A stretch of 64,000 bases of DNA, taken from contig OY970176.1 in assembly GCA_963707955.1 (NCBI GenBank), positions 544,001 through 608,000 of the forward strand, given 5' to 3'. The notes beneath the pieces were generated by a model, which was given only the letters and a program-made list of their open reading frames with translations, ran no database searches and had not been told where the DNA came from. Both the position numbers and the translations under genes were made by a program. This DNA is from Candidatus Bathyarchaeota archaeon. GTDB lineage: Archaea; Thermoproteota; Bathyarchaeia; Bathyarchaeales; Bathycorpusculaceae. Of the stretch, positions 7,728-51,766 are shown one piece after another. How positions within the stretch are numbered: the first letter of the stretch is position 1; every line of letters starts with the position of its first letter.

Positions 7728-8210
7728 GTGCTGGACATTAACAAATCTGTCATGGCAACCAACCAGAAAGCCCTCTTTAAGTTGCTAATCAAATACACTG
7801 TGAGCCCTGAAGAACCTGTAGCGGGTGAACGCGCGAATTTCACCATAAGAATAACAAACATAAGTGACTCAGCATTTCTTGGAGGTAAATTCGATTTCTT
7901 CAGGATCGAGGACGCTGGCGGTCTCGCCACGTCATCGGCACTAGAATCATCATTACCGACAATTCCAGAGATTAAGCCTAATGAATCTTATGAATGGTCC
8001 CATGGCATCAGAATTCCTGTTGATGGACTCGTATGGGTTGAAGCGAAGATTCGAACTAGTGATGGTCAAGAAGTACGGCATTTTCAAATTAGAGAATACG
8101 ATATGGGTACTGAATGGAAATCTCCGTTGCACGTTATTAGTAAGGAAAACAGCAGGATTATTTCACTTTTGAGCGAAATTGCCAAATCCTTGAAATCGAG
8201 TAAAGCTTAA
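7728..8210 (+). CDS. Hypothetical protein, possible Ig-like/CARDB-like fold (element I cargo)
   Basis: SPEEPVAGERANFTIRITN and IPEIKPNES patterns. Confidence 0.5.
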   Translation: MLDINKSVMATNQKALFKLLIKYTVSPEEPVAGERANFTIRITNISDSAFLGGKFDFFRIEDAGGLATSSALESSLPTIPEIKPNESYEWSHGIRIPVDGLVWVEAKIRTSDGQEVRHFQIREYDMGTEWKSPLHVISKENSRIISLLSEIAKSLKSSKA

Positions 8211-8231
8211 TATCTCTAAAAAATCTTTCAA

Positions 8232-8480
8232 TTGCTGATAGAAATGTTTGACCGAAGGGAGCGAGAGTTAGAAAGAGAAAGCGTAACCTACGGTGCTGAC
8301 CTAACACTCAAAACAATCTATGACCTGAAAAAAGAATTTCAGGAGTTCAAGGCTGTCGTACTAGAAAGAGAGAAAATGAGAGAGAAAATGTGGGGAGACC
8401 GTTTAGTCTTTCTTGGACTCCTAATAGCGTCTTGGGCCATTACAACAGGCATACTTTTACATTCGACTGGAACATTTTAG
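8232..8480 (+). CDS. Small coiled-coil protein with C-terminal transmembrane helix
   Basis: Charged helix followed by LVFLGLLIASWAITTGILL. Confidence 0.55.
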   Translation: MLIEMFDRRERELERESVTYGADLTLKTIYDLKKEFQEFKAVVLEREKMREKMWGDRLVFLGLLIASWAITTGILLHSTGTF

Positions 8481-8725
8481 CTACATTGAATCAGATTGCG
8501 CTCTTTGTTTCACGATTGCGATACTTGGAGTTCACGTCTCCTTTGCGAGCGCTACAACAAAAACAAAAGAAACACGCACATCTAATTATCAGGCTTAAGC
8601 CCTGTTGCTCTTCGTCTCACGCGTGCGCCAAAAGGCATAAAGACGTAGACATGAAGAAGAGCGCATGCTTTAAATAGAAACCAATTTAACTCGGAGTTTC
8701 CGACTATCATACAAAGCAGAATCGT

Positions 8726-9439
8726 ATGTCAGATATATTGCCAGACCAAATGTGGTGGCTCATAACTACAATTCTTGCAACGTTGACCATTATTGTACCG
8801 ATTGGTTTATACTGGAAAACTCGAAAGATTCGATTATTTTGTTATAATATTGTTCAACAGACGCCTTTGCTAAGGGTGAACAAAACGATAAAAGAGAAGC
8901 TACAGATAACCTTTGAAGGAAAACCAGTGCAGCAGTTTTACCTTGTCATAATCAGGCTCCTAAACGCAGGAAATACTCCGATAACGACACCTGATTTTGC
9001 GAGTCCAGTCCAAGTGAGTTTTGGCAACGATGCCGAAATACTTACAGCCGAAATCCAAAAAAAGCAACCTCAAGATTTGTTAACATCCTTCGCTATCGAA
9101 GGAAACAAAATCGTCCTCAGTCGCGACCTCCTAAATAAAGGCGAAGGCATTACACTTAAAGCACTTATCACAAAATTTGAGAAGGTGTCGGTAAGCGGAA
9201 GGATTACTGGATGTGAAATCCGTGAGTTTAAGGACCAAAGCCAATCCTATCTTACTAGAATAGCTATTGGTCTCATGGGAATCTCTCTCATCGGGACCAT
9301 TCTCGAGACTCTGACACCGACCTCCAATTTGTATCACTTCATTGCTACTTCTTCAGCAGCTGCACTTGTTGTCGTTATGGGCATGTACACTTACAAGCTT
9401 TGGAAAAAACAGCGCTTGCAAGCTTCGGAAAAAACGTAG
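8726..9439 (+). CDS. Membrane protein with three TM helices and a soluble beta domain (cargo)
   Basis: One N-terminal TM, NAGNTPI motif, two C-terminal TMs. Confidence 0.7.
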   Translation: MSDILPDQMWWLITTILATLTIIVPIGLYWKTRKIRLFCYNIVQQTPLLRVNKTIKEKLQITFEGKPVQQFYLVIIRLLNAGNTPITTPDFASPVQVSFGNDAEILTAEIQKKQPQDLLTSFAIEGNKIVLSRDLLNKGEGITLKALITKFEKVSVSGRITGCEIREFKDQSQSYLTRIAIGLMGISLIGTILETLTPTSNLYHFIATSSAAALVVVMGMYTYKLWKKQRLQASEKT

Positions 9440-11150: not shown

Positions 11151-11984
11151 ATGAAGAACAGAGACATCACAAAAGACGAAATCAATAGAATAACAGAGGA
11201 ATGTCAACCCCGAGAAAAAGCATTCTTCACTGTCATGAGGCAGTCGGGACTAACACCACACGCTATAAAGCAACTCAAAATAGGAAACTTGGAAAGAATT
11301 ATGTATCCAAATACGCCGATACCATGCAAAGTAAGCATACCGTATGAAAAATCCCCAACTTTCATAGGAGAAGAGGCCACCAAATACCTCAAACAATACT
11401 TAGCAACCAGAACCCGCGCGAGAGAGAACCTGACATCACAAAGTCTACTATTCACGATACAAAATAACCCCAAAAAAGAAATCAACACAAAAGACGAAAG
11501 CAGAGCATTCAGACGAGCCGCACAAAAACTAAAAAAGAAAAGAAAAATCAACTACGAAATCAGAAGAGGAAAACCAAGCGAATTACGGCTTTACAGCCTC
11601 ATAGAATTCTACAAAAAAAACACCAACGACTACCGAAAGGAACTAGACAACGACACCATACGCAAGAACGATGAATTCTGCAGAAACCTATATGAAAAAT
11701 TAGCCATGCCTTCCTTAGAAATCGAACCGCCATCACCAATAGAAATACACCAACTAAGAAAGGAAAATCAAGAGCTGAAAGAACAATTTATAAAATTAGA
11801 AAAATCCATGGGACCAGTAACGGCACTGTATTATGAACTCGCAGGAATGATTCCTGCCACTATGTTTCCAGAATTAGAGCCCGTCCCAACAGAAAATGAG
11901 GACGAGACGCACATAGACCAACAACGACACACCGTAACACACAAAAGCGCGCGCGCTAAACCTAGTAAACCAATCCAACATTAA
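11151..11984 (+). CDS. Degenerate tyrosine-recombinase-fold protein, probably catalytically inactive
   Basis: Box I-like MRQSGLTPHAIKQLKIGNL lacks the Arg; the HxxR position reads YSLI; C-terminal coiled coil. Confidence 0.65.
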   Translation: MKNRDITKDEINRITEECQPREKAFFTVMRQSGLTPHAIKQLKIGNLERIMYPNTPIPCKVSIPYEKSPTFIGEEATKYLKQYLATRTRARENLTSQSLLFTIQNNPKKEINTKDESRAFRRAAQKLKKKRKINYEIRRGKPSELRLYSLIEFYKKNTNDYRKELDNDTIRKNDEFCRNLYEKLAMPSLEIEPPSPIEIHQLRKENQELKEQFIKLEKSMGPVTALYYELAGMIPATMFPELEPVPTENEDETHIDQQRHTVTHKSARAKPSKPIQH

Positions 11985-12282
11985 AAAGAAACCAAGGTTT
12001 CTTTGCCCGCCAATCATCCTTTGTATGATGAAAAAATTTATTGTCTCGAAGAATCCCAAAGCATCTTGCCCGCCATTCGGCTCTCTCAACATAAATTTTT
12101 CGCTTTTCTCTCCCCTTGAAAAGCGTCTTACATGAAAAAACGACCCCAACGAAATCATGAAGCATCATGAACATAAAGGAACGCAAGAAAATGAAAACAC
12201 TAAAAAGAACCCAACAAGAAATAAGGAATGCCCAACTCTGGGCAGAAATTCAGCTCCCAAAACTTTTAGGAGAAAAGAAAGC

Positions 12283-12696
12283 ATGAACACCAACAAAGAC
12301 ACGACAGAAAACAATGAACAATCAACAACAACAACTAACAATAAAACAACCTCCGTAGAATTACTAAGGTTGAGCGAAGGTTGGTATACTAAACCACTAC
12401 AGCCACCGTTTTCCCGATATAACCACCAAATCGAGACACAAGTGGAAGCTATACGACGACCCCAACCACCTGTCAACTACCTAGACCTCATAATAAACAC
12501 TTGCATCAAAGCAACCAACGAAGGAAAAGCAGAAAACACCATTTCAGCCTTTTTCCACAGACTAAGGCAACTAAGCAGAGAAGCAGACCTAATGAAGTCC
12601 GAAGAAGTGAAGACCGCAATAGCAAAGGCAAAGAACAACAAAACAAAGAAACAAACGAAAAACAACTCAACGCCCGTTGGCTTGTCCCTAAATTAA
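12283..12696 (+). pseudogene. int(N) of element I fused in frame to a truncated paralogous integrase
   Basis: ATG 12283 after AGGAGA; WYTKPL...AIRRPQP...KATNEGKAENTISAFFHRLRQLSREADLM aligns with the 6586 integrase, then breaks off near 12670. Confidence 0.8.
12378..12463 (-). tRNA. 5' half of tRNA-Pro with a different 50-nt D-loop intron (12397-12446); includes attR
   Basis: Reverse complement GGGGTCGTCGTATAGCT-[50 nt]-TGGTTTAGTATACCAACCT; helix ATAG/CTGT and intron stems CCACT/GGTGG and TCTCGAT/ATCGGGA. Confidence 0.8.
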
Positions 12697-14304: not shown

Positions 14305-14796
14305 TCAGCTTCTCTTCACTAACTCTTTTGCTAAATTTGAGAATGAAAGAAAACCAGAATCTTCATTAAGATTCACTAAGAAACTTGCCGAATACGTCAC
14401 TTCCCAAAACTCATTCTTTTCAAGTTTTCTTTTAAATTCTGCATAAGAAGAGTAGTCTTCATGAAGCGAAACAACCAAGTGCGAAGACTTCAAGCCTAAC
14501 CCTCTTTCAAACATTAGAATATTTGAGAAAGTGCCTAGCGCCCTTCCAAACTCTTTCGAATCAGGTTCCTTAACCATGGCAAGAAAGGTTATAGCCAAGA
14601 TTTCAAACCCTAACTTGCGGAAGTCTGGAATTGCGGTATATTCTCTTATGACCTTTTCTTTTTCGAGTCTAGCCCTTAATCTTGTGACTGTCGGTTGGGA
14701 AACGCCTACAGACCTAGCTAGTTCTCTGTCACTTCTTCGACTGTCCTTCATAAGCTCACTGATTAGTTTTGATTCAACAGTTTTCAACGTAAGCAC
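14305..14796 (-). CDS. Lrp/AsnC-family transcriptional regulator
   Basis: DSRRSDRELARSVGVSQPTVTR HTH; YTAIPDFRKLG. Confidence 0.88.
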   Translation of the reverse strand: MLTLKTVESKLISELMKDSRRSDRELARSVGVSQPTVTRLRARLEKEKVIREYTAIPDFRKLGFEILAITFLAMVKEPDSKEFGRALGTFSNILMFERGLGLKSSHLVVSLHEDYSSYAEFKRKLEKNEFWEVTYSASFLVNLNEDSGFLSFSNLAKELVKRS

Positions 14797-21090: not shown

Positions 21091-21525
21091 ATGAAGACCC
21101 TCAAGATCTCAGAGGACATCCACCAGAAGCTGACCGCACTGATGGGCGAATTGATGACTCAGACAAGCAAGATGCAGACGTACCAAGACGCAATAAACGC
21201 GCTGATAAACCAGTCAGTCATCCTTCCCGAAGAGCTGCTCACGCAGACACAGAGCTTCATAGAAGAGAACAGGCACCTAGGTTACACGACGAAGGAAGAG
21301 TTCATACGCGACGCCATAAGATTCCGATTAACATGGCTAAAACAAGAATACGAATACATAGAAATGCCCAAAGAACAGTACGACATGCTTGAAGAAGCAC
21401 TGCGGCAGATGAACATGCCGTACCGAAGCGTTGAAGACTTCATAACCAATCAGACAAAGGAAGTCCTGCAGAAACATGATGAATGGAAAAAGGCAAGCGC
21501 TCATAGGCGACTGAGAAAAGAGTAG
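21091..21525 (+). CDS. Tandem ribbon-helix-helix DNA-binding protein
   Basis: MKTLKISEDIH, GYTTKEEFIRDAIR and PYRSVEDFI repeats. Confidence 0.7.
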   Translation: MKTLKISEDIHQKLTALMGELMTQTSKMQTYQDAINALINQSVILPEELLTQTQSFIEENRHLGYTTKEEFIRDAIRFRLTWLKQEYEYIEMPKEQYDMLEEALRQMNMPYRSVEDFITNQTKEVLQKHDEWKKASAHRRLRKE

Positions 21526-23402: not shown

Positions 23403-23779
23403 AAACAGAATACTTCTTAATGAACTTTCGTTTAAAATAGAATACCGGGCGATTAGGCCTCGCCGATTTCTGGATTCGCGCTTTTCATGGATGGGGAGCG
23501 CTACATCCCTGTATTCGCGTTTTTCCCCTTCTATTCCACCCGCCTCCCCCCTAGGGTACTAGTACTGCACGTAGCCATTGCGAAAGGCCCTACTGGATTT
23601 GTGTGGGCTTTAAGCTGAGCTTGTGTAGAAGGCTTGAAAGAGGGCTGGGCGAAGGTAGTAACTTTTCTATGCATTCAACCGTCACCGTTTTCTGGCTTCA
23701 TCTGCCCTGCTCCGAGCTTGCTAAAACGCCCGTCCTCCATGCTAGGGTGTCAGCCATACTTAGCCCGTCAAGCGTGTCT

Positions 23780-23953: not shown

Positions 23954-24011
23954 AAAACATCACCTCTTTAGACATCTCACCGTCTTCGGTTCTGAACATA
24001 CGGAGGGTCCT

Positions 24012-24027
24012 AATTCATAAAAGAAAT
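24012..24027 (+). repeat. attL core of element II (AATTC-ATAAAA-GAAAT)
   Basis: 12-bp identity with 34478-34489; about 40 bp upstream of the integrase. Confidence 0.75.
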
Positions 24028-24066
24028 AGAGTAGATAATATACCATTTAGACTAATTCTTAAATAG

Positions 24067-25314
24067 ATGAATAGACTAGTACCTAGTAGGGAAAGAGCTA
24101 TGGTAGAAAGTAAGATGATCTTGGAATGGGCCAAAGCATCTTATAGGACCGAACAGAACCAGAAGGCAGCTATTAGAAAACTTAGAGACTTTCTAGCTTT
24201 CACTAAGATGGCCCCCGAAGAGCTTGTTAAGGAACAAAGAGCTAAGATAGATGAGAGAGCTGCACAGAGAAGGATCTTAGCTTTCTATAAGAAGATCATA
24301 GATGCTGGAAAGACTCCCACCGTGGCCTTTGACTATACTAAGTTTCTAAGAAGCTTCTATAACTACTATGGCCTTGTGTTGTCCTTTAGGCCTAATGAGT
24401 TAGAGATGCCTCTGCCTAAGATCAAAGACTTTCCCTTTGAGCTACAGCACATTCAAGGTATGATCTATGCTGCCAATGTTAAAGGTAAAGCGCTCATACT
24501 AACTCTTGAAAGCAGTGGTCTTAGGATAGGCGATATAGTCAAGCTACTCAGAAAAGACATTGAGCCTTTGCTAGAGAAAGAGCCCCCTGTAGAGCTTGAA
24601 GTGATTACAGAAAAGGAAAGAGTAAGGGCTAATTCTTTTCTCCATTCAGTAGCAATCAAGGCCTTAAAGGATTATCTAGCTTCTAGGACAGATGACTTTC
24701 CTTGGCTATTTACTACCGATTTAGGTAGTAATCTCTCTACGCCTGAAGCAGACCGAATGGTTAAGACAGCCTTTAAGAATGCTGGGTTTGACAGTGGAAA
24801 TCTTAGAGTCCGAACACACTGCATTAGAAAGTTTACTATAGGGCAGTTTCAGGACAGTGGCATAGAGGAAAACCTTTGGAAAGCTATTGTCGGTAAGAAA
24901 ACACCACAGGCTGCCTATAACTCTAACAAACTGAGAGAAGCATACATTTCAGCTCTGCCTAAGCTAAATCCAGAGGCACTTGTCAATAACCATGTGAAGA
25001 TGGATGATCTAGCTAACAAGGTCCAGACTCTTGAAAAGGAGAACCTAGAGCTTAGGCAGAAACTTACTGAGCTAGAGCAGAAGAAGGGTTTTGAGGTGTT
25101 AATGGAGATGTACCAAGACAGACAGAAAGAGATCAATAAAGATGCCTTCAATAAGGCTGCTCCAGCCAAGGCCAGTCTGAATGGTAAGAAACCTGCTCCT
25201 ACAGAACCTATAACAATCAATGGATCAGAGATTCTAAGTCTAAAGGCTCTAGCTCAAAGTCTACAGCTCTTCTATGATAAGAAGAAGAAAGAAGGACAGT
25301 CTAAGAATGAATGA
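24067..25314 (+). CDS. int: Tyrosine recombinase/integrase
   Basis: SGLRIGD, TEKE, THCIRKF and VGKKTPQAAY motifs; C-terminal coiled coil. Confidence 0.9.
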   Translation: MNRLVPSRERAMVESKMILEWAKASYRTEQNQKAAIRKLRDFLAFTKMAPEELVKEQRAKIDERAAQRRILAFYKKIIDAGKTPTVAFDYTKFLRSFYNYYGLVLSFRPNELEMPLPKIKDFPFELQHIQGMIYAANVKGKALILTLESSGLRIGDIVKLLRKDIEPLLEKEPPVELEVITEKERVRANSFLHSVAIKALKDYLASRTDDFPWLFTTDLGSNLSTPEADRMVKTAFKNAGFDSGNLRVRTHCIRKFTIGQFQDSGIEENLWKAIVGKKTPQAAYNSNKLREAYISALPKLNPEALVNNHVKMDDLANKVQTLEKENLELRQKLTELEQKKGFEVLMEMYQDRQKEINKDAFNKAAPAKASLNGKKPAPTEPITINGSEILSLKALAQSLQLFYDKKKKEGQSKNE

Positions 25315-25423
25315 TCAAGTATTCTATGCAACCTTGGCTATTCTTACCTTCATATTCTTTCTAGGGCTAGTTATTGTAATCAAAGAGACATTCAAGCTGC
25401 CTAGAAGTAAAAAGCCCCATTAG
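25307..25423 (+). CDS. 38-aa single-TM peptide (not in the ORF track)
   Basis: MNDQVFYATLAILTFIFFLGLVIVIKETFKLPRSKKPH*, overlapping the int stop and followed by a T-tract. Confidence 0.55.
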   Translation: MNDQVFYATLAILTFIFFLGLVIVIKETFKLPRSKKPH

Positions 25424-25475
25424 TCTCTCTTTTTTATTCTCCAAGTTTACCACATTAAGATTCTAGATAAAAATA

Positions 25476-25630
25476 TAGTGACCATCTCAGTCAAAGGTTC
25501 AGAGACGGCCACTAGCTGTTATGATGGTAAGAGGACGTTCCGAAAAGGAAGCGCCCGGTCTCCCATCAGTGTGGCCGTAGGCAGTAAAGCCCAAGTGAAT
25601 GACAATCAGTTCACTTGAACCGCGACTGAC
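25476..25630 (-). ncRNA. Candidate multi-stem structured RNA
   Basis: Nested complementary pairs TCAGTC/GACTGA, GGTTCA/TGAACC, ACGGCCAC/GTGGCCGT, TGATGG/CCATCA, CAAGTGAA/TTCACTTG; mismatches become G-U on the minus strand. Confidence 0.55.
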
Positions 25631-25649
25631 CGCCCTTAGCCTATCACTT

Positions 25650-25751
25650 CTAAGATAGTGCTTTTACTATCTTCTGCAATATCTCAACTATACCCGTTCC
25701 TGCTGATGGGTTGCTGAGAAGAATAACTACATCATCTAATGTGGCTGCCAT
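25650..25751 (-). CDS. 33-aa amphipathic peptide (not in the ORF track)
   Basis: MAATLDDVVILLSNPSAGTGIVEILQKIVKALS* with a GGTGA ribosome-binding site. Confidence 0.5.
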   Translation of the reverse strand: MAATLDDVVILLSNPSAGTGIVEILQKIVKALS

Positions 25752-25937
25752 TTGTTAATCACCTGCCTTTATCCTTAATTGGTGCTCTAGTGTAGAGCTC
25801 AAATTTACCGTCTTGAAGGGTTATTCTCAGTACAAAGCATTTGCCGAAGAGGTTTAACCATATCCCGCCCTTAGCCATATGCCGGGCCCGAATATAGTCT
25901 TCCTTAGTGTGTTTTATGTATTGTATACTGGTACCCT

Positions 25938-26072
25938 CTATGCTTCATTAAGCTTCTTCAAGATAGCAGCTAACTCGTCACTCGTGAGAATCTTGGAGAG
26001 GATCGTCTTTAGATCCTTATTGTCCTTCTCTGATAAGAGTTGAACGTCTCCAATGACTCTGTACTTTCCCAT
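25938..26072 (-). CDS. 44-aa helical peptide (not in the ORF track)
   Basis: MGKYRVIGDVQLLSEKDNKDLKTILSKILTSDELAAILKKLNEA* with a GGGGTGA ribosome-binding site. Confidence 0.55.
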   Translation of the reverse strand: MGKYRVIGDVQLLSEKDNKDLKTILSKILTSDELAAILKKLNEA

Positions 26073-26083
26073 ATGCTCACCCC

Positions 26084-26854
26084 TTAGTCGGTTTTCTCTT
26101 CTCTTACAACTCTCTGTACTTCTTTGCCCGTTAACGGATCTCTAGCCCATTCTATGTGTTCTTCATACTCGACCGGCTTAGGCTTAGGCTCTGCAATCTT
26201 TGGCTTCTTCGGTTGCTTTGGTTCTTCTTTGTCTAAGATCACAATGTCAAGCTCAACATGGAGAGTGCTTGGTGGATCTAGAACACCACTATTGTCAAGA
26301 ACATCTTTAGTCAACTTAATGGGGCACTTTGTGGTCTTGTCATATACGACTTTCCAATCACCTAAGCCTCTAGAAGCATATGGACCCTCGCAAGCTACAT
26401 AGCTACTACCGTCTTGTTGGGGCAATAGATTGATCATAGCAGGCCCATCAACAAAGATCAATACCGGTTTAGCTATGACTCTAAGTTTACCCAAGTTTAT
26501 CGGTGTATTGTTGTATGCTTGAAGAGTAGCGTCGTATTCAACCTGTAGATCTTTAACCCTCTTGCTAAAAGTCATACTAGTGTTAGAGCTTTCAATGGAT
26601 GCTATCTGCTTGGAGAGTAGTATCAATTTATCTCTAAGTTTACGGTGTGTCTCGTCCTCAAGGCCTGAAGCTACTTGCTGTCTACGGACCATAGCATTAT
26701 GCTGTTCAATCAATAGCTGACTGCGTTTCTTCTCTTCTTGTTCTTCTCTAGTTTGTCTTTGTCTCTCTTCATTAGCTGCTTGGATATTCTTCTTGCGTTC
26801 TTCTATATCACGTTTAATTTGATCATCTAATTGGTCTGATCTATCTAAACTCAT
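26084..26854 (-). CDS. Hypothetical coiled-coil protein of element II
   Basis: 256-aa ORF coupled to its neighbours, with a long charged N-terminal helix. Confidence 0.7.
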   Translation of the reverse strand: MSLDRSDQLDDQIKRDIEERKKNIQAANEERQRQTREEQEEKKRSQLLIEQHNAMVRRQQVASGLEDETHRKLRDKLILLSKQIASIESSNTSMTFSKRVKDLQVEYDATLQAYNNTPINLGKLRVIAKPVLIFVDGPAMINLLPQQDGSSYVACEGPYASRGLGDWKVVYDKTTKCPIKLTKDVLDNSGVLDPPSTLHVELDIVILDKEEPKQPKKPKIAEPKPKPVEYEEHIEWARDPLTGKEVQRVVREEKTD

Positions 26855-27036
26855 TTTTCATTCACCCCCATTTTAGACTTAATATCATCCTTTTCATTGG
26901 TGTATACGCCCGTTCTTCTGATACGGACTTCGATGATGGCACATCTTGGATTTTGACAAACCCACCCGCCATCCTTTTTATGGACTAAGATTCCCCCACA
27001 GAGAGGGCATTTCAATGTCCATTCACTGTTTACCAT
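26851..27036 (-). CDS. Small zinc-ribbon protein
   Basis: CPLCGG...WVCQNPRC. Confidence 0.7.
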   Translation of the reverse strand: MVNSEWTLKCPLCGGILVHKKDGGWVCQNPRCAIIEVRIRRTGVYTNEKDDIKSKMGVNEK

Positions 27037-27039
27037 ATT

Positions 27040-28449
27040 CTATTTTCCCTTCTTTCCAAATAGAAGATCAAAACACCGCTCACAGTAGACTTTTCTACCC
27101 TTCAAGTCTTCCTTAACTGTGACTATTCTTCCGCAGCGTTCGCAGCATAAACGGTTATTGCGTGTAGTAGTATTCCCAGTGAGACTATTGAAAACTTTAC
27201 CACTATTCATGTTCGCTATGACTACGGCTCTAGGAGTTTCTTTTACTTCTGGAATGATGTCCCAACATAGTGCTAAGCCTAAGGCATCTACTAGGTTATC
27301 ATTTCTGGTTTTACCCTTATGATAGTGGGACAGTTCAAAATACAATTCCTTAAAGTTCTGTGGGGCTTTAAAATGACCAAGATTGATGGTATTCTTAACC
27401 TCACCCAGAATCTTATCCTTATAGATCTGGGCCTCTATGTAATTTGGTTTCAGTCCATGTTGTTCTAAGAGACCGTGAAATTCAACGGGTTGGTTATCCA
27501 TTCGGATGCTTGTGACTCTATACTGCTTCATAAGAGTTGCAATGGCTTGGGGATCAAACTCTCTCATGTTTAGGGCATAGAGAACTTTGAATCTCTCCTT
27601 TTGCCTTTCAACAATGATTATACCGGTCGCATTGGTCTTGCCATAGCCCGGATCTATTCCCGCTTGTATCTTACTAGTAGAAATACCAGAAGCTATAGGT
27701 TCAATATCTTTACTGAAAGATCTACTTAGTGCTTCATTATCTAGAAACTCTTTCTCTTCGCTTGTTGGTATTCTAGCTAAGATCTCCCGGGCATATGCCG
27801 CTTCACTCAGTCTCATCTTTGATCCTTTGTTAGATTCTTGCTGCCATGGACAGACCTCTGAGCTAAACTGCTTAAGAGTAAAACCGTATTTCTCTGGATC
27901 TGTTATTAGATCCACAAAGAAACCAGAGGGCTCAGACGGTGTGCTTAGTACGACTAGCTTACAGATAGAACCGCTTAGAACCGGGGTTAAAGCTTTCCAC
28001 ACTGTGTCTTTGATCAAGCATGCCTCATCAACGAAGAGAATATCAGCTCTGAATCCCCTTATAGACTTAGATGTGGCCATGCATGTGTCAACAATGGAAC
28101 CGTTCTCAAGTTGAAACCCGTTCTCGGGGATCTCTTTAAACATTCCACCCTGAACGATCTTAGCTTTAATATCCGGGTTATCTCGGACAAAGTTGTTTAA
28201 GTGGAAGTACATTCTCTTCTGCCCTGAGACTAGGAGAATCTCAAGCGGTCTTTTGAGCTCATTAGAATATACATCAGCGTACCAGAGACTAGCTAGAGCA
28301 CAAAGCATAGTCTTTGAAAACCCTCTACCTGCACAAAGTGCTAAGTTTTTTATATCGAAGTTGGCTAAAGCTTCTAGGACTTCAATTTGTTCTGGTATTG
28401 GCTCTAGCTTTGTGATTCTACGGAAATAGCTAACTATGTCTTCATGCAT
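27040..28449 (-). CDS. terL: Terminase large subunit (ATPase plus RNase H-like nuclease) with a C-terminal Zn finger
   Basis: EQ motif, Walker A AGRGFSKT, IRG...Walker B LFVDEA, LSTP, nuclease AGIDPG and DNLVDA. Confidence 0.82.
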   Translation of the reverse strand: MHEDIVSYFRRITKLEPIPEQIEVLEALANFDIKNLALCAGRGFSKTMLCALASLWYADVYSNELKRPLEILLVSGQKRMYFHLNNFVRDNPDIKAKIVQGGMFKEIPENGFQLENGSIVDTCMATSKSIRGFRADILFVDEACLIKDTVWKALTPVLSGSICKLVVLSTPSEPSGFFVDLITDPEKYGFTLKQFSSEVCPWQQESNKGSKMRLSEAAYAREILARIPTSEEKEFLDNEALSRSFSKDIEPIASGISTSKIQAGIDPGYGKTNATGIIIVERQKERFKVLYALNMREFDPQAIATLMKQYRVTSIRMDNQPVEFHGLLEQHGLKPNYIEAQIYKDKILGEVKNTINLGHFKAPQNFKELYFELSHYHKGKTRNDNLVDALGLALCWDIIPEVKETPRAVVIANMNSGKVFNSLTGNTTTRNNRLCCERCGRIVTVKEDLKGRKVYCERCFDLLFGKKGK

Positions 28450-30541
28450 CTACAAACCCTCCTAAGTTCTCATCTTGTTCTGAGGTTCGAATCCTTATTC
28501 CCTGATAGAATCGAGTTCGTATGCCCTTAACCATAGGACGACTCTGTTTGAACAGAATGTATTTTCTTAGCTTCATTAGCAGTATTTGATCCGAGAGTGG
28601 AACCTGAGACCGCTTCTTACAGAACTCATTAAAGACTATAGAAAGTTGCTTTAGACTTATCTCAGACTGGAGATCTGGAACAAGCATACTCTCTGTGAAA
28701 TCTTTGACTATATCAACCGTCCATATGGCCTGAGTCTCATGGCTATCTGTTTCAATGGTGAATCCTTTGTTATCTAAGAGTCTCTTTAAGCCAACTAGAG
28801 CTTTGTTCAATAGGCCTGAAAGTTCTGTGTCCGTCGTTAGCTTGTCTAGAAGGTTGTTATCCCTTTTACCATTCTCTTTGCTAAAGACTCTGTCAAAATT
28901 GAAGATCTGTGGTCTTCGATAGAAAGCATAGCTAGTGTCTGTTGTTTCCGGAAGTTGGTTAGCAACGAAGAGTAGCTTGGCGTAGTTTACGAAATATATT
29001 GGATCTTGATGGAACTTTACGTCTCCCTTGATTCTGGATCTGCCGGTCATTTCCTTAAACTTAGAACTGTCTCTAAGCGCTTGGGTGCTAAGTTCGTCTG
29101 CTACGTTTGCCAGCTTACCATATGAGAGAGCTGTCTTGAAATTGTCCCCTAGCTCTTGCATTGGGACATGGCTAACGTTATCTTCTCCTAGGAATTTGAT
29201 TAATAGATTAAGGAAAGTGGTCTTACCGTTCTCGCCTTCTCCGACCAAGAAGAAAGCCTTTTCAAATAGATAGTTGCGATAAAGACAGAACCCGAAAAAC
29301 TCCAAGATTGTTTCTATGTGTTTATTGCTCTCAAGCCATTCAGAGAGAGCTTTGTCTATCAATGGGCAGGTTGCTTTAGGATCGTATCTTATTGGAAGCT
29401 TATTGAGAAAAGGTACGCTTGGTGTATGTGGCTGCAATTCAAGAGTGTTTATGTCTAGAATACCGTTTTGGAGACAGATTAAGTTTAGAGGTACGTTATC
29501 AAAGTAGCTTTCTGCTACCGGTACGCTAAGCTTGATTCTAGAGAGCACCTGTTCAAAGTCTATCCTTTGATAATCATCCCCGAACTCGTTTACTATGGCT
29601 AAGCCTATTGTCTGTTCAGGTAACCCCCGGGCTTTGTATATCCCATCCTCGTAGATGAAAAGCTGTTGATTTGGTAGACAGATAAAAACATGCTCTTGCA
29701 TAAGCTGTCTGAAAACTCTAGCTCTCTTTTCGATAGTAACGTCAGACTTCTTATAATATGGTATTCTAGTCTTGAAAGCGCTTGTTACTTTCTCTAGAAT
29801 AGTCTGATCTGGTAAAGGCGGTGTGTTCTTCAAATTCCAACTGAGGAGAATATCTCTAACCTCTTCAAAGGTCCTCTTCTGGGCTCTAAGTTTGCTTGCC
29901 AATAGAATGGCGGTATTATCCCGTTCACCCTCAGCTACTCCATGACTGAGAAGAGTCTCTATATCGAGAAACTTGGTATTTCTATTTGCTTTGGGTTTAA
30001 GATTATAATGCTGTATAATCTCTTTGAAAGTGATGGATGCATCTTGAATAGAAAGAATTGGCTTATCTACGACTAGATCTGAGTACATATTGGCTAGATG
30101 CTTGCTTGAGAGAAAGTCTACGTTCTCAAAGTTCTCATCTATCTGTACTTCTAGATCTGATAAAAGGAATACGTGATAACCATGGTTGGGTGTTTTCTCT
30201 ACGTAAGTCCCCATATCCTTAAAGTCTTCGTCTCTCCATAACCCTAACCCCTTCTTGTCATCAAAGTCTATACAAACTAGAAACTTACCAGATCTTGTCT
30301 TTCCGAGTATGACAGAGAACCCGTCAGCTTGGTCCCATCGCTGGCTCTCAAACTCACCCGGGGCCATAAGAGCTGTCTGGTATTGATCCCACTTCTCAAG
30401 TGGCTTATGGAAAGCTTTACTCTTTCTAATTTCTGTCTTGGTTGGGATTACGCTGAATCCTTGATCATACCAATACTTAGCTTTAGTCTTGATAGACTCA
30501 GACGTCAAGAGGATCTCTCCTTGGATAGAATGTTCGCCCAC
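28442..30541 (-). CDS. Primase-polymerase / PriCT / D5-like SF3 helicase fusion
   Basis: CIDFD and KTPNHGYH (prim-pol); EGERDN and WN..NTPPL (PriCT); GEGENGKTT, ADEL and FVAN (SF3). Confidence 0.9.
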   Translation of the reverse strand: MGEHSIQGEILLTSESIKTKAKYWYDQGFSVIPTKTEIRKSKAFHKPLEKWDQYQTALMAPGEFESQRWDQADGFSVILGKTRSGKFLVCIDFDDKKGLGLWRDEDFKDMGTYVEKTPNHGYHVFLLSDLEVQIDENFENVDFLSSKHLANMYSDLVVDKPILSIQDASITFKEIIQHYNLKPKANRNTKFLDIETLLSHGVAEGERDNTAILLASKLRAQKRTFEEVRDILLSWNLKNTPPLPDQTILEKVTSAFKTRIPYYKKSDVTIEKRARVFRQLMQEHVFICLPNQQLFIYEDGIYKARGLPEQTIGLAIVNEFGDDYQRIDFEQVLSRIKLSVPVAESYFDNVPLNLICLQNGILDINTLELQPHTPSVPFLNKLPIRYDPKATCPLIDKALSEWLESNKHIETILEFFGFCLYRNYLFEKAFFLVGEGENGKTTFLNLLIKFLGEDNVSHVPMQELGDNFKTALSYGKLANVADELSTQALRDSSKFKEMTGRSRIKGDVKFHQDPIYFVNYAKLLFVANQLPETTDTSYAFYRRPQIFNFDRVFSKENGKRDNNLLDKLTTDTELSGLLNKALVGLKRLLDNKGFTIETDSHETQAIWTVDIVKDFTESMLVPDLQSEISLKQLSIVFNEFCKKRSQVPLSDQILLMKLRKYILFKQSRPMVKGIRTRFYQGIRIRTSEQDENLGGFVDA

Positions 30542-30689
30542 AATTCTGGCATATGTACCGTTGAGTACGTCCGAACTTTCTTGTTACGAATGAACCGCCT
30601 AGGACAATATGATGGCTATGACAATCCGGGCACTCAAGACTAGAGCTGTCTGGCTTTCTTGGTCTGCCAACTTTATGCTTTTCCCGCAT
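30498..30689 (-). CDS. AT-hook plus zinc-ribbon protein
   Basis: VGRPRK, CPDC...QRYICQNCGRTF. Confidence 0.7.
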   Translation of the reverse strand: MREKHKVGRPRKPDSSSLECPDCHSHHIVLGGSFVTRKFGRTQRYICQNCGRTFYPRRDPLDV

Positions 30690-30844
30690 AGTTATACTCT
30701 CTATTACTTCACTAGGTATACTAGGGCACCAGAGAATTTAAACGTAGCTGTCACTCTTAGTGAATAAATATAAATTATTAGTCATTTCCTGAGTTTAATT
30801 CTGTAGATATACGAGCATGTTATACGGCTAGTTGTATTAATTGA

Positions 30845-31700
30845 AATTGTCTACCTAGATTGTCCTAGGGAGAGAATTTTAAGAGAGTAAAACTACAAAG
30901 ATAGAGGACCCGGGCTAGGGCTACAGATATATTATCATAATGATGAACTAGTTGGGTGCTTATAGAAAGTTACACTTTGCGGATGCCTATAAACGACGCT
31001 GATATTTGGTTTTCGGGTGCTGGCGGGGGTCGCATCAGTCAGTGACATTCTGGGCGACCGTAGTCGGTGCCGCTTTCTAATGCCTCTGGTGGCGTCAGCA
31101 TACTTTATCACTTCCAGCAGGCCTAAGCGGTGTAATTCCATATTTAGTGACACCGATAGCGACCGTAGACTGTTACTGTATGCTTGTAGAACACGTCCTT
31201 AGAATTTAACTTCTAGTGACGGGCTTATATATAATATGCTAGGAATTACACTATACAGTAAACTTAGTCAAATTGCGGTGTCACTACAAGCGGTCGCTCC
31301 CGGGGGTCGCCCGTAGCAAAACGATATCGTAGGTGTAACTGGCTAGGCGCGCTGATAAGGTCGTTAGGTAGGGGCACCGTAAGGTAGGCCCGAGATGCTG
31401 CTATAGTTTACTATATACTACTATTAGGAAACTTAGGGGGAACTCAAAGAGAGGAATGGGATTTGACTGACAGTATAGCAGATTGGATCTAGATCATCAT
31501 TGTTACCATATGAAGCTAGAGGTCGGGCAAAACAATGGTCTTTTGTCTACCCTGTCCTACCTCACTATTTATTCTCCCTATAATTACACTATATTAAATA
31601 TCTACACTCTTACAGATAAATAAGAGGGGAGGTAGGGTAAGCTAGACAGGTCGGGCAAATTACCATCAAAGACCATAAGGCGATTGCCCAGAGTAGCCAA
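30845..31700. promoter_or_regulatory. Putative replication origin or packaging region of element II
   Basis: Largely non-coding stretch between divergent operons, with repeated GGTCGC/GCGACC, GGTGT(A/C)A and AGGTCGGGCAAA motifs around an AT-rich core. Confidence 0.5.
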
Positions 31701-31873
31701 GGGCTCTCTATTAGCTCTCTACCCCCAATTGAAACTACCCGTGCATCCCTTTTAGTGAATAGAACTTAGATCTTACTCGGTACTTTAGCTATTCGCCAAC
31801 TATGCAACCAACAATGCATTATCTAACGTATTTCAAGTGAGGTATAAATAACAGTTGTCCCATGATCTAAACT

Positions 31874-32239
31874 GTGAGAATCTTGACAGTAAAGACATGG
31901 GGAGGACAGCCATACTTAGACACTAACCGCCATTCTAGTCCCAGAGAGATTTGCATAGCCCAAGATGATCTTTACTCTGAGCAGATGAAGATAGAGAACT
32001 TAGCTATTCGACATAACATGGCCCAAGAGTCTAGGCTAGAAGGGCAAGTTCTCCGAGACCAAGAAAACTTGGCTATTTCTAGATCTCTAAAGTGGGGCCA
32101 CAGGCTAGAAAGAGACTCTAAGATTTCTTCTTCCCTTCATAATCAGACCATTTCCAAAGATTCTCACATAGACTCTCAGAGTCTCCTAGCAACCTATAGA
32201 CAGTATCTAATAGACTACTTTGGAGGTGATACAGAATGA
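31874..32239 (+). CDS. Hypothetical protein (element II)
   Basis: ORF coupled by an ATGA overlap to the next gene; start uncertain. Confidence 0.5.
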   Translation: MRILTVKTWGGQPYLDTNRHSSPREICIAQDDLYSEQMKIENLAIRHNMAQESRLEGQVLRDQENLAISRSLKWGHRLERDSKISSSLHNQTISKDSHIDSQSLLATYRQYLIDYFGGDTE

Positions 32240-32487
32240 CAGAGAAAAGTAAGCCTAAGAAGAGAGAGATCTTTGGAGATCCTAAGCAGAGTCTAACATG
32301 CTCTATCTGTCATGAGACTAAGCCATTAACAACTGAGTTCTTCTGGATTTATAAAGACAAGAGAAACGGGCCTAAGATCTTAGATAACGTGTACTTCCAA
32401 GGTAAGACTAACGGTAAAGGCCCGGGCTGCAAAGCTTGTTATAAACTATATAGAAAGAGACTAGCTAGAAAGAAAGAGAATAACTAA
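32236..32487 (+). CDS. Small phage-type Zn-finger protein
   Basis: CSICHETKPLTTEFF...CKAC; GGAGGTG ribosome-binding site. Confidence 0.7.
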   Translation: MTEKSKPKKREIFGDPKQSLTCSICHETKPLTTEFFWIYKDKRNGPKILDNVYFQGKTNGKGPGCKACYKLYRKRLARKKENN

Positions 32488-32575
32488 GATCTCTTCTATC
32501 CTTTTTTTCTCATATTCTTGTTTCAGCTTGACTAAGGCTTTTTTTATGTCATGACTTAGACTAGAAAAAGAGTCA

Positions 32576-32926
32576 TTATGTTTTTGAGTTTAGAATATTA
32601 TTTAGAGCTTGCAGTTCTAAAAGTTCTTCTTCCGTGATATTTCGGTCTTTCAGTTTTTGTTCTAATTCATCTTTTCTTTCTCTCATTTTCAAGACTTCTA
32701 CTTCTTTCCTCAATCCTAGAATGTAGTCTCTCTTTTTCTCAAAATCAGCTCCAAGAGAGTCAAACTTTTTCCATGTTTCATGTTTGTCTTTATCAAGTTG
32801 GGCTTCTCTCGCTTCTGTCTCTTTTTCAGTTTCAAATGGGGTAGACTTATTCTTTAATCTTGCATACTCTTTGCTTAGTTTTCCAATTTCATTATTCAAT
32901 TCTTCAAATGCTTTATCATCTATCAT
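32576..32926 (-). CDS. Coiled-coil hypothetical protein (cargo)
   Basis: Highly charged heptad-rich ORF. Confidence 0.6.
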   Translation of the reverse strand: MIDDKAFEELNNEIGKLSKEYARLKNKSTPFETEKETEAREAQLDKDKHETWKKFDSLGADFEKKRDYILGLRKEVEVLKMRERKDELEQKLKDRNITEEELLELQALNNILNSKT

Positions 32927-33047
32927 TTTTAAACCCCTAATTTGTCTTATGTTGCTATGCAGATATAAAATCTTTCACAATTCATTGTAATTCTCGCAAA
33001 ACCTATATTGATAGATTTTCAATGAGAAAAGGGAGTGAGAACTGATA

Positions 33048-34418
33048 ATGAAGTTGAGTTGGATATTGGTTCTAGTGTTCTTTCTATCGCTAGGGATAGG
33101 TCTGGTTCCCAAAAGCACTTGCCAGAATACGGACAATGTTGACATCACTATTTATCCTAATATCAGTGACATAGACTTCAAAAACGGAATCGTTACTTTC
33201 TCAAATCTCTATTTGGAGATTGATGCAAATGAGAGTTTTGCTGTCGGCATTTTTACCACCGCATTACAATCTCCCTCTTGGATAGACAACCGAGCAACCT
33301 ACGATAATAAAACTGGACTATACTCACTAAACCAAGAAGAATTCCCGAATGGTCGCCAACTCAAGTTTAGTCTTAAAGAAGATTTGACGCACTGGACACT
33401 CATTAATGACAGACTTGAATGTGGAATAGCAATAGGACTAAACATAACATCCAGTTTGGGAGTGAAGAATGTTTACCCCGGTCTTAATTTTCCTTTGCAA
33501 GATAACTGGAATGTTACGGCAACTATTACCGAAGCCACGCCCGCAGAGGCATCCCAATATGCACTTTATGGTATGCATGCGATAAATCAATCAATTTCAT
33601 CTAGCAATTTGACACAGTTCTACGTGATTAAGATTGATGTCATTCGCATTTCCGTGGGGATAAACGTAGTCTACTGGATTCCGCTCCTCTTTATGCTTGC
33701 ACTTCTTTTTGCTTCACTTAAACTGGTTCGAGAGAGGGATTTGGAAAATTCTTTGTTAGTTTATATCTCCGTTGATATTTTTGGTTTTGGTTATCTTCTG
33801 ACTCTAATGAACATCACTCCCTCAGTTATTACTTCAATAGATATTCTCACACTTGTCGATGTTTCATTGAGTTTTGTTTTCTCTATATGGGCAATTTTCA
33901 GACATCCTGCAAAGGGAGACAAAAAGAAGATTAAAAGCGAAAAGGTCTATAGTGAGACACAAAACAAGAATGTGAAGCCAATGGGTGAGGAACAAACTAC
34001 TGATGAGATTCTGAAACTTATTCGATTGGTTGACAATCAAAAAGACAAGTTGTTTAGAGCCCGTGACCTTATTTACAGTTGGTCTTTTATCTTCTTAGCC
34101 ATATTTGTGCTATACCTTTTCGTAGAGCCTATTTTGCTTTTCAGCACGCCGTCATCAACTGATAAGGCTATATTGACTTTATCCTTCGTTACAGTGATCG
34201 TTGCAATCTTAGCTCTCATTGTACCATTTTCCAAAGAAACCATAATTTTGAAGAGTTTCAAGAGATTGGAAATGTGTGTCGAGGAAGACAAGAAACCTCT
34301 GCTTAAAGCGTTAATCAAGATAAAAAGCAAAAACAATGAATTTTGCCTAGAACAGATTTACAACATGGACAAAGGTATGTTCACGAAAGAAGAACTGATT
34401 AAAAGGCTATATGAGTAG
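33048..34418 (+). CDS. Multi-pass membrane protein with an extracellular N-terminal domain (cargo)
   Basis: Signal peptide, sequon-rich domain, about five TMs; may be a fusion of two genes. Confidence 0.65.
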   Translation: MKLSWILVLVFFLSLGIGLVPKSTCQNTDNVDITIYPNISDIDFKNGIVTFSNLYLEIDANESFAVGIFTTALQSPSWIDNRATYDNKTGLYSLNQEEFPNGRQLKFSLKEDLTHWTLINDRLECGIAIGLNITSSLGVKNVYPGLNFPLQDNWNVTATITEATPAEASQYALYGMHAINQSISSSNLTQFYVIKIDVIRISVGINVVYWIPLLFMLALLFASLKLVRERDLENSLLVYISVDIFGFGYLLTLMNITPSVITSIDILTLVDVSLSFVFSIWAIFRHPAKGDKKKIKSEKVYSETQNKNVKPMGEEQTTDEILKLIRLVDNQKDKLFRARDLIYSWSFIFLAIFVLYLFVEPILLFSTPSSTDKAILTLSFVTVIVAILALIVPFSKETIILKSFKRLEMCVEEDKKPLLKALIKIKSKNNEFCLEQIYNMDKGMFTKEELIKRLYE

Positions 34419-34475
34419 TTTCGCGCTAGAAGATCACTATCCTTGTACTTATAGAATTAGAATAGAAAGACTCTT

Positions 34476-34491
34476 ATTTCATAAAAGAATT
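34476..34491 (+). repeat. attR core of element II (ATTTC-ATAAAA-GAATT)
   Basis: Matches attL at 24012-24027. Confidence 0.75.
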
Positions 34492-51140: not shown

Positions 51141-51249
51141 GCCGGGGTCTCCTAGCTTAGGTATGGAGCAAGCCTGGAGACGATCAATTTCGCCTAACAG
51201 CTTGTGGCCTCTCGGGGCCACGTGGGTTCAAATCCCACTCCCGGCGCCA
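51141..51249 (+). tRNA. tRNA-Ser(GGA) with a canonical 37/38 intron (about 51180-51198)
   Basis: GCCGGGG acceptor, CAAGC-CTGGAG...A-GCTTG, long variable arm, TTCAAAT loop, encoded CCA. Confidence 0.9.
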
Positions 51250-51370
51250 ACAAACGATTGAGGAAGCATGAATCAGCATCGAGAGTCATAACTCTCATAA
51301 TTGTTCATCTCTCACGCGCGCGGCTTGTCAAATCTGGCTTCCTATTCTCATATATGCACGGTCAGACTTG

Positions 51371-51661
51371 TTATGATTTACAAGCGGACAATATCTCATC
51401 GACCTTTTCTAGGTTGATATCAGTAATCAAAACTCTCTTCTGTTTAGATGTAAAACCGGAAGTAATCTCAACTTTTCTCTTGAAAACCTTTGAGAGCTCC
51501 TTTATCAACTCTCTATTAACCTTACCTTTCACAGGAGACTCTTTACAGCGCACCACAAGTTCATCATCTTCGACCTCAATCTTGAATTCTCTCGAATCTA
51601 GCTTAACGTAGACATTCAAGACTACTCCTTGATCAGTTTCCAACAATTTCATTGTTGACAC
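51371..51661 (-). CDS. DUF167/YggU-family protein
   Basis: SPVKGKVNRELI and ITSGFTSKQK motifs. Confidence 0.88.
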   Translation of the reverse strand: MSTMKLLETDQGVVLNVYVKLDSREFKIEVEDDELVVRCKESPVKGKVNRELIKELSKVFKRKVEITSGFTSKQKRVLITDINLEKVDEILSACKS

Positions 51662-51766
51662 AGCTTTCTAGTTTCTGCTTTCTAAATTTAAAGAGGAAAT
51701 TAGTTTCTAATAATTTTGATTGTTTTATAAAGTAGAAATCAGAAACCTTGATGCCATGGAAGTAAC

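Follow-up and report, generated by a model that had tools for sequence, protein, structure and literature searches.

A terminase is considered a signature of genuine head-tailed viruses. Among bacterial satellites, according to the cited parts of PMC10085698, terL, which encodes the large terminase subunit (TerL), is a core gene only in cfPICI, where it is accompanied by capsid, portal, protease and head-tail connector genes. Marine particle-borne elements were described to carry the small terminase subunit (TerS) and are presumed to use the TerL of their helper (PMC9618062, cited passages). For archaea, the closest precedent is NitKor-E1 of Ca. Nitrosopumilus koreensis AR1 (Thaumarchaeota), a cryptic integrated element with the one published archaeal terminase in a non-viral element, which its authors set aside as 'enigmatic' and 'likely a relic' (PMC6563490, cited passages). 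Furthermore, pSSVx, pSSVi, SRCE (halo-/nanohaloarchaeal spindle viruses) and NMV2S (Asgard siphovirus) have been proposed as archaeal satellites (passages of bioRxiv 10.1101/2025.02.15.638363 and 10.64898/2026.08.12.739948). Here we describe a discrete low-GC island of ~10.5 kb in the chromosome of an archaeon of the Bathyarchaeia, located at positions 24014-34489 of the 64,000-nt stretch that was analysed (the window; coordinates are positions in this window unless another contig is named). The island is an integrated, recently mobile, capsid-less genetic element, in which a plasmid-type backbone (a XerA-like integrase, a 12-nt attachment (att) core and a P4-family primase-helicase) is combined with a TerL captured from head-tailed archaeal viruses.

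Like NitKor-E1, the island is an archaeal integrated element that harbours a tyrosine integrase and a terminase and no other genes of head-tailed viruses. In NitKor-E1, however, TerL has TerS immediately upstream, a VapBC pair and a restriction endonuclease are encoded as well, and a coupling of replicase and TerL is not described in the cited passages (PMC6563490). The island, in contrast, has no recognisable TerS, its TerL overlaps a primase-helicase and ends in a zinc-ribbon tail; the two elements are set apart by description, not by sequence. The island falls under the definition of archaeal cryptic integrated elements in the same passages (PMC6563490), as it contains an integrase and lacks the full signature genes of viruses or conjugation. 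With PICI, cfPICI and P4-like satellites, as characterised in the cited parts of PMC10085698, it shares a size of ~10 kb, a terminal integrase gene with att repeats, a primase-helicase of the P4 family and the lack of a full structural module. Integrase and att sites, a primase/replicase and a length of ~10-15 kb are features by which PICIs are recognised and were all found, but neither a packaging-redirection gene (TerS, Ppi, Rpp) nor a master repressor or AlpA-type regulator was recognised. Whereas PICIs carry TerS or other redirecting proteins (PMC10085698, cited parts), the island has TerL alone, and of the cfPICI core genes it possesses TerL but not the capsid, portal, protease and connector genes. 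In addition, the island yielded no homologues of AlpA, Stl, Sid or Cpm, and its host and putative helpers are archaeal.

The proposed archaeal satellites resemble the island in combining a replication module derived from plasmids, which in NMV2S is a helicase-primase, with part of a virus morphogenesis module, and pSSVx and SRCE encode a virus-type ATPase without a capsid gene. However, these elements are small episomes (3.8 kb in the case of NMV2S), most of them are related to spindle viruses and have a fusellovirus-type AAA+ ATPase instead of a terminase, and the passages of the two preprints cited above describe none of them as a TerL-bearing integrated island. Our literature search, made within a limited library of papers, returned no description of TerL-encoding capsid-less archaeal satellites. 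We thus class the island as a satellite-like integrative element outside every named satellite family.

The genome holding the island is closed (2.35 Mb) and archaeal, the best match of its SSU rRNA being Rfam RF01959 (1474 bits). Across 24.0-34.5 kb the GC content drops from ~0.50 to ~0.40, with 0.403 for the island compared to 0.479 for the genome. Both ends of the island carry an exact 12-nt direct repeat, TTCATAAAAGAA, forming the attL core at 24014-24025 and the attR core at 34478-34489. It lies within a longer imperfect repeat (16/18 nt, 24008-24025 versus 34472-34489) and is found in three copies in the 2.35-Mb genome. We compared a 16.8-kb stretch spanning the island with 41 related genomes, 10 of which belong to the same genus. 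Two of these 10 (G001 and G007, sister species) contain an empty site, in which the flanks abut with a 12-nt overlap at the repeat: the match of the left flank ends at 24025 and that of the right flank starts at 34478. The empty site reads TCCTGATTCATAAAAGAA, whereas attL reads TCCTAATTCATAAAAGAA and attR TCTTATTTCATAAAAGAA. Except for matches of at most 75 nt, the island DNA had no match in the other 40 genomes searched.

We also used sequencing data in the form of assembled contigs from four freshwater-sediment runs of one study, all of which hold the island and one of which may be the source sample; no RNA run was listed among them. These contigs span both attL and attR and represent the integrated form. 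At the end of one contig of run X4, left-flank-like letters of a diverged strain are joined to position 34472, which is the empty site of a co-occurring related strain. The insertion target is intergenic, between a ribbon-helix-helix gene and a gene encoding a YdjM-family membrane protein, and it does not coincide with a tRNA gene, as no tRNA or Rfam family was found in the window. The empty sites and the direct repeats indicate a genuine insertion with precise ends, which took place recently relative to species divergence. An earlier note on this DNA, made from the sequence alone, had reported both att ends and had placed the element at 24012-34491. The exact 12-nt repeats and the empty sites in two of the 10 same-genus genomes and in the co-occurring strain confirm these ends, and the coordinates were correct to within 2 nt.

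The gene at 27040-28449 (minus strand) encodes a protein of 469 aa with an ATPase domain, an RNase H-like nuclease domain and a C-terminal Cys4 zinc-ribbon extension (~residues 436-460). The PHROG family phrog_2 matches residues 14-401 (E 7.6e-23), and Pfam Terminase_6N reaches 21.2 bits, just under its cut-off of 22. We found 13 metagenomic homologues with 42-55% identity. The sequences GRGFSKT, VDE (D141, E142) and STP (S169, T170), which we take to be the Walker A, Walker B and C-motif, respectively, are invariant in 13/13 aligned family members, and so are the nuclease residues D266, D318, D384 and D388. The N-terminal ATPase motifs are also conserved relative to the TerLs of the virus contigs described below. 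An AlphaFold model built on the homologue alignment (pLDDT 83.2) is good for residues 1-400 and poor for 401-469. In a Foldseek search of the PDB, this model gave 83 matches with E<=0.001; ranks 1-33, of which 27 rows were listed, are all large terminases and include D6E (5oe8, E 1e-17), T4 gp17, Sf6 gp2 and HK97. Structures comprising only the nuclease, G20c 5m1q (TM 0.70 by target) and P22 4dkw, were matched as well, as were ATPase-only structures. Profile, conserved motifs and predicted fold identify the protein as a genuine large terminase subunit, and judged from its residues it looks catalytically active. The Cys4 extension was found only in the window copy among the aligned TerLs.

The TerL gene is part of a minus-strand row in the order 63-aa zinc-binding protein, primase-helicase, TerL, 61-aa zinc ribbon, 256-aa protein and micro-ORFs. 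These genes are packed with overlaps of 44, 8 and 4 nt and one 3-nt gap, the 8-nt overlap being that of the TerL start with the replicase stop. The replicase (28442-30541, minus strand, 699 aa) is a primase-polymerase/superfamily-3 helicase of the P4/D5 family, as recognised by TIGR01613 (E 5.6e-48, above cut-off), Pfam DUF5906, D5_N and PriCT_1, and phrog_864 (E 4.8e-75); DFDD and HGYH in its N-terminal part are presumably the primase motifs. This family is frequent on plasmids and phages of both domains and is uninformative on lifestyle. At the left end of the island, the tyrosine integrase (24067-25314, plus strand) has 415 aa and a C-terminal coiled-coil tail. It was matched by PF00589 (E 1.3e-6, 28.8 bits versus a cut-off of 27.1), phrog_216 (E 4.7e-13) and the XerA-like NF040815 (E 7.5e-17, under the equivalog cut-off). 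Since the att core lies 41 nt upstream of the integrase start, integration does not split the gene. As had been noticed from the sequence, these three large genes are intact and the minus-strand row is tightly coupled.

The origin of TerL was traced among viral contigs. In IMG/VR, nine contigs (L014-L022) encode TerLs that are 30-42% identical to the window TerL, with 40-42% for L014 and L015. A homologue of a capsid protein (278-425 aa) is encoded near TerL in seven of the nine contigs by count (loci given: L014-L019, L021 and L022), and PHROGs weakly call this protein a major head protein (E 1e-5 to 4e-4 for L014 and L015, the two tested). A portal-like protein of 425-536 aa is present in five of the nine (L014, L015, L016, L021 and L022), and a hidden Markov model (HMM) of this protein picks out the portal of an unrelated provirus. 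The TerL of L014 is identical to the metagenome homologue P0013. In maximum-likelihood trees, a phylogeny that the earlier note had called for, the window TerL is nested inside the clade of virus-contig TerLs (100/99), in a subclade with L014 and L015 (98/96), and its branch length of 0.83 is ordinary compared to the median of 0.63. No other island protein has a homologue on L014-L022. L014 and L015, TerL relatives with readable context, have no gene but TerL in common with the island, which therefore did not arise by deletion from such a virus. According to the earlier note, close relatives that are full proviruses, from which the structural block had been deleted, would have refuted the satellite idea, and this did not come true. 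The island is thus chimeric, with a backbone that is non-viral and a TerL whose viral ancestry is shown by our data. A scan of genome contigs returned one distant bacterial match only, among 599 stretches.

The position directly before TerL is the usual place of TerS. In the window island it is occupied by the replicase and not by a small helical protein, as is the case on L080 (1-796) and L079 (183-386), where a helical protein of 85 and 67 aa, respectively, ends at the TerL start. Among the metagenome matches listed, all of them on short contigs, these two gave context for close relatives of the window TerL. In front of the helical protein, L080 encodes the C-terminus of another protein, for which a weak match to an MCM-type winged helix was obtained (E 0.0023).

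We then considered whether the island encodes virion proteins. Among its 10 proteins, no capsid, portal or tail gene was found with Pfam, PHROGs, NCBIfam and PADLOC, and the set that marks a head-tailed provirus (HK97-fold capsid, portal and tail genes) is missing. HMMs of the capsid, portal-like and 319-aa proteins of the virus group were run with filters off on six-frame translations. The best E values on the window island were 7.3, 3.3 and 0.3, respectively, and over all three islands tested 2.9, 1.5 and 0.3. As positive controls, the capsid HMM found the distant capsid protein of the resident provirus of this genome (E 4e-8), and the portal HMM ranked its portal first (E 0.0034). An HMM of a 228-aa PD-(D/E)XK nuclease of the virus contigs found nothing in the islands.

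The only unassigned soluble island protein long enough for an HK97-type capsid (>230 aa) is the 256-aa protein (26084-26854, minus strand), which begins with three long helices and further comprises a beta-rich domain, a linker rich in Lys and Pro, and a beta hairpin at the C-terminus. Among 1.84 billion representatives only one homologue was found (P0016, 38% identity), IMG/VR contained no relative, and a protein atlas yielded nothing of use. Structure prediction of this protein, proposed earlier as a check, yielded a model of three long helices and a small beta domain (pLDDT 69.7) with 0 Foldseek matches at E<=0.001 in PDB or BFVD, none being capsid-like. The 456-aa protein (33048-34418, plus strand) is, as judged from its sequence, a multi-pass membrane protein and not a capsid candidate. 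Alternatively, the island could be a very small complete virus, or a provirus with a capsid protein that has diverged beyond recognition, for instance the 256-aa or 456-aa one. Five to seven ORFs are without an assigned function, the 256-aa model is of moderate quality, and PHROGs recognise even the capsid protein of the related virus contigs weakly. Yet the family-specific capsid and portal HMMs remained empty on the island while detecting the distant capsid protein of the provirus, the 256-aa model is a helical bundle with a small beta domain and no structural match, and the 456-aa protein is of the membrane type. Moreover, a virus using TerL needs both portal and capsid, and with 4.7 of the 10.5 kb taken by integrase, replicase and TerL, little room is left for them. 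We consider such a virus highly improbable. The statement that no portal, HK97-type capsid or tail gene is recognisable was thus upheld by profile libraries, controlled six-frame searches and the fold search, and none of the ORFs or six-frame remnants proved to be capsid- or portal-like.

Comparable elements, for which the earlier note had suggested a search, were found in the same archaeal family. We searched 332 genomes of this family twice, with a TerL profile and then with the TerL of genome G496, and found the TerL clade in five of them, including the genome studied here. One of the others (G532) has a 14.7-kb virus-like contig with capsid- and portal-like genes. The remaining three contain further low-GC TerL islands without a detected capsid or portal. 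In G496 and G495, which belong to another genus, the islands of ~10.2 and 10.4 kb are located at unrelated chromosomal loci, and each encodes an integrase and TerL; neither capsid nor portal was found by BLAST and six-frame HMMs in both, nor by Pfam and PHROGs in G496. The third (G444) lies at a contig end and encodes an integrase and a TerL cut down to its nuclease half; no capsid or portal was found by BLAST, the one test applied there. The three complete islands (window, G496 and G495) all measure 10.2-10.5 kb.

All of these islands are low in GC and integrated; each has a tyrosine integrase gene together with a TerL from the same virus clade, and in G496, G495 and G444 a 224-245-aa protein with a coiled-coil N-terminus adjoins TerL. 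Homology of this protein in G496 and G495 (224 aa) with the 256-aa protein of the window was considered and is unsupported (hhalign E 0.082, probability 0.69). The islands of G496 and G495 are syntenic with each other (integrase 65%, small ORFs 76-85%, the 224/245-aa protein 72% and TerL 92-93% identical), and neither genome has a second close TerL. They differ from the window island, which has a primase-helicase, in their accessory genes: G496 carries a mini-topoisomerase-VI-like pair (phrog_6247, E 3e-44, and a GHKL ATPase) and G495 ParB-domain proteins. The TerLs of the three islands are only 29-30% identical to the window TerL and belong to another subclade. That of G496 keeps all catalytic motifs and sits on a long branch (2.3 versus the median of 0.63) within this other subclade of the virus TerL clade, which indicates a second, independent capture. 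Between G496 and G495, TerL shows a dN of 0.05 and a dS of 0.41, and the resulting dN/dS of 0.12 points to purifying selection; the ratio is 0.33 for the 224-aa protein and 0.05 for the integrase, the dS of the latter being saturated.

A recent and precise insertion, an active-looking TerL joined to replication genes, the absence of any detectable capsid or portal, and purifying selection in a second lineage together make it hard to uphold that TerL is a mere relic. Furthermore, islands of the same size and without capsid have moved between loci and swapped modules while their TerL was under purifying selection, as expected if TerL aids their spread. We therefore favour, with a probability of about 50%, a satellite or 'hitcher' lifestyle in which the element packages itself into the procapsids of a helper with its own TerL. 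The integrase would excise the element and the primase-helicase would replicate it. TerL, presumably co-transcribed with the overlapping replicase gene, may obtain its DNA specificity from its C-terminal zinc ribbon or from the adjacent 61-aa zinc-ribbon protein, which would replace TerS. It would then cut the element DNA and pump it into procapsids supplied by a head-tailed virus that co-infects the cell and belongs to the group from which TerL originated. Packaging into procapsids of this source group is the most economical mechanism. More tentatively, and with somewhat less confidence, we suggest a new class of archaeal virus satellites, which would pirate helper procapsids with a motor of their own derived from viruses, zinc-ribbon parts taking the place of TerS; within one family, unrelated integrative backbones would have acquired TerL on at least two occasions, and the size of ~10.3 kb would correspond to a packaging unit. 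The suggestion that the island is a satellite with its own TerL, or has repurposed this TerL, is supported in part: the anatomy and the recurrence of such islands speak for it, whereas the satellite function is something we still infer.

Several observations weigh against packaging by the element's own TerL. No helper with a matching TerL or portal was found in the genome. Its only head-tailed provirus (contig C1 of G000, ~2,054,300-2,075,000; loci L138 and L139) encodes, besides a tape-measure protein, TerL (phrog_2, E 1.9e-38), a portal (E 3.6e-26) and a major head protein (E 5e-14), and has a host-like GC content of 0.477. The TerL of this provirus belongs to a different, distant branch: its sole BLAST link is a 21-26% identity to virus-contig members of the window TerL clade, and in a direct comparison it gave no match to the window TerL at E<=1. 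The provirus and the island share no gene or DNA, which neither supports nor excludes the provirus as helper. A foreign TerL would in any case have to fit the portal of the helper. With regard to the island itself, no TerS or regulator family was matched by its 10 proteins in the four libraries, and no capsid-size or size-redirection gene of the satellite type was recognised. The check for attP junctions that the earlier note had recommended did not reveal excision: no attP or circular joint was present in the contigs of the four runs, which cannot show rare forms, and the depth of the island equals that of its flanks (27.4 versus 29.7-31.2 in run X1). Relatives of the replicase, with identities of <=40%, occur in 34 of the 401 genomes of the class, and none of the 29 readable replicase loci has a TerL within 1.5 kb; IMG/VR contains no relative of the replicase either. 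Finally, TerL has decayed in two of the four islands, being broken in G495 by two TAA stops and a frame break, acquired later, and reduced to its nuclease half in G444. TerL is thus not needed for persistence, and the dN/dS of 0.12 comes from a different island lineage, so that for the window island it can be used only by analogy.

Part of these data would also fit a chimeric cryptic integrated element that gained a virus terminase by recombination, recently and in intact form, as a passenger without a role in its spread. This is how the terminase of NitKor-E1, the closest archaeal precedent, was read ('likely a relic', cited passages of PMC6563490), and it would account for the decay in G495 and G444 and for the fact that helper, TerS and excision signal were not found. 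For lack of close relatives of the window element, the selection acting on its TerL is also not measurable. A passenger is, on the other hand, not expected to evolve with a dN/dS of 0.12 between two capsid-less islands at different loci, nor to be captured twice independently by elements of one size class. In the window, moreover, TerL retains all catalytic motifs and is embedded in the replicase row by its 8-nt overlap, with no debris of other virus genes around it. We regard a passenger TerL as unlikely.

To our knowledge there is no precedent for a TerL acting outside capsid packaging. A repurposed TerL might nevertheless function as an intracellular ATPase-nuclease, which either cuts the concatemers or poisons the motors of incoming related viruses, or resolves the replication concatemers of the element itself. 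Purifying selection without any structural genes, the coupling to the replicase gene, the zinc ribbon unique to the window copy and the long branch of the G496 TerL, which fits a changed function, are all compatible with such a role, and bacterial satellites are generally known to interfere with helper packaging (see also the cited passages of PMC9618062). However, none of the 10 island proteins matches a known defence family in PADLOC, the window TerL does not show accelerated evolution, and terminases had not been found before in non-viral elements according to the cited passages of PMC6563490. This role appears to us about as improbable as that of a passenger, and packaging into helper procapsids remains the explanation we prefer.

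The recurrence of capsid-less, integrase-bearing TerL islands in one archaeal family, with at least two captures and purifying selection between two of the islands, turns an oddity into a testable question, namely what a terminase does for an element without a capsid. If packaging piracy holds true, head-tailed archaeal viruses would have their first satellite system for which a hijacking gene is defined. The use of an own motor together with a borrowed shell would then be a mode that is not among the bacterial satellite families in the literature compared here, as far as the cited parts go. Virus-mining pipelines that use TerL as a hallmark will score such islands as incomplete proviruses.

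The other genes of the island are mostly small. The minus-strand row starts with the 63-aa zinc-binding protein (30498-30689), which matches the IS1/IS1595 N-terminal Zn-binding domain NF050000 (29.7 versus 28 bits) and is likely a DNA-binding regulator. Downstream of TerL, the 61-aa four-cysteine zinc-ribbon protein (26851-27036, minus strand) gave weak Zn-ribbon matches. It is in the same frame as TerL: at 27034-27042 the TAG stop of TerL, one codon and the ATG of the zinc ribbon follow each other. Read-through of this TAG, or its use for pyrrolysine, was considered and rejected, as TAG ends 448 of 1296 long ORFs and aragorn finds no tRNA-Pyl. Because TAG is an ordinary stop in this genome, the in-frame pair is a curiosity or an old fission. 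The TerL zinc ribbon together with the 61-aa ORF resembles the N-terminal part of a protein with two zinc ribbons (162 aa) that is encoded by virus contig L019 (tblastn E 1e-4 in a small database). The row ends with three putative micro-ORFs of 33, 39 and 44 aa (25650-26072, minus strand), which have no family match and are without relatives for a conservation test.

Between the two divergent gene groups lies a 1.2-kb stretch without ORFs of >=73 aa (30690-31873), in which no repeats other than short, scattered ones were seen. Neither here nor elsewhere in the island did Rfam give a match at E<=1. The stretch may be a control region, a replication origin or a packaging site. A scan for sigma-70 promoters and terminators found 27 versus 23.1 expected in shuffles, using a bacterial model that is not applicable to archaea. 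On the right side of this stretch, a putative 121-aa ORF with a GTG start (31874-32239, plus strand) has sub-threshold Pfam matches only and gave nothing in PHROGs, NCBIfam and PADLOC. It is followed by an 83-aa Cys-rich zinc-finger protein (32236-32487, plus strand; weak match to phrog_1035, endonuclease VII, E 0.0045) and by a charged protein of 116 aa (32576-32926, minus strand), which is without a significant family and, as predicted from its sequence, probably all-helical. The 456-aa membrane protein at the right end is hydrophobic at its N-terminus and comprises several hydrophobic segments as well as an outer domain with many N-x-S/T sites. It belongs to no family in the four libraries, and an ORF in another low-GC island (L134) shares 33% identity with its C-terminal third.

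Besides L134 (G019:C91), other small low-GC islands were encountered at L130 (G009:C1), L131 (G003:C117) and L133 (G004:C7), which indicates that the genus carries several unrelated small islands. One of these four carries a tyrosine integrase that is 24% identical. Short DNA matches of 32493-32567 in G009, G003 and G008 were followed up and dismissed, since they are located in other low-GC islands and not in related elements.

Elsewhere in the genome, the left edge of the resident provirus adjoins a paralogue (74% nucleotide identity) of the window gene at 21091-21525. A third TerL-like gene is found at G000:C1:1286663-1288138 (L002/L136). It encodes 491 aa, has a GC content of 0.54 and lies among host-like genes, with a GH57 glycosidase gene downstream and an aspartyl-protease-like ORF upstream. 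Its product is 33-40% identical to TerLs scattered through the class, and the gene is probably a provirus remnant. No CRISPR array was detected in the genome by a naive repeat scan. Two candidates were rejected, being coding tandem repeats such as G000:C1:2287681-2288467, in which units of 66-69 nt are conserved throughout and spacers are missing; they consequently give no spacer link to any virus.

Directly left of the target site of the island, a repeat of ~190-240 nt is located at 23496-23735. It is present in many copies in the genome (for instance C1:378382, 719481, 729060 and 2331185) and in other genomes of the genus with 77-87% identity. The contigs of the sequencing runs break at this repeat with many loose ends, and its depth is 77 compared to ~30. 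It looks like a MITE-type or other dispersed repeat. Outside the island, low-GC genes were also observed at 7728-9439, 11151-12696, 14305-14796, 51204-52315 and 61073-62188 (GC 0.39-0.43 versus ~0.48-0.50 for their neighbours), which may be small acquired segments. Finally, when the window was compared to the short-read contigs, including those of the likely source sample, the only differences were A>G or T>C at 24845, 24847, 24967, 25191, 31442, 31734, 31951, 32049 and 34778. Four of these positions are within the integrase gene. Most of the changes affect the final A in a run of A followed by C or T (GAAAC, CAAAC, TAAAT), a pattern that looks like a systematic consensus error or an effect of base modification in the assembly.

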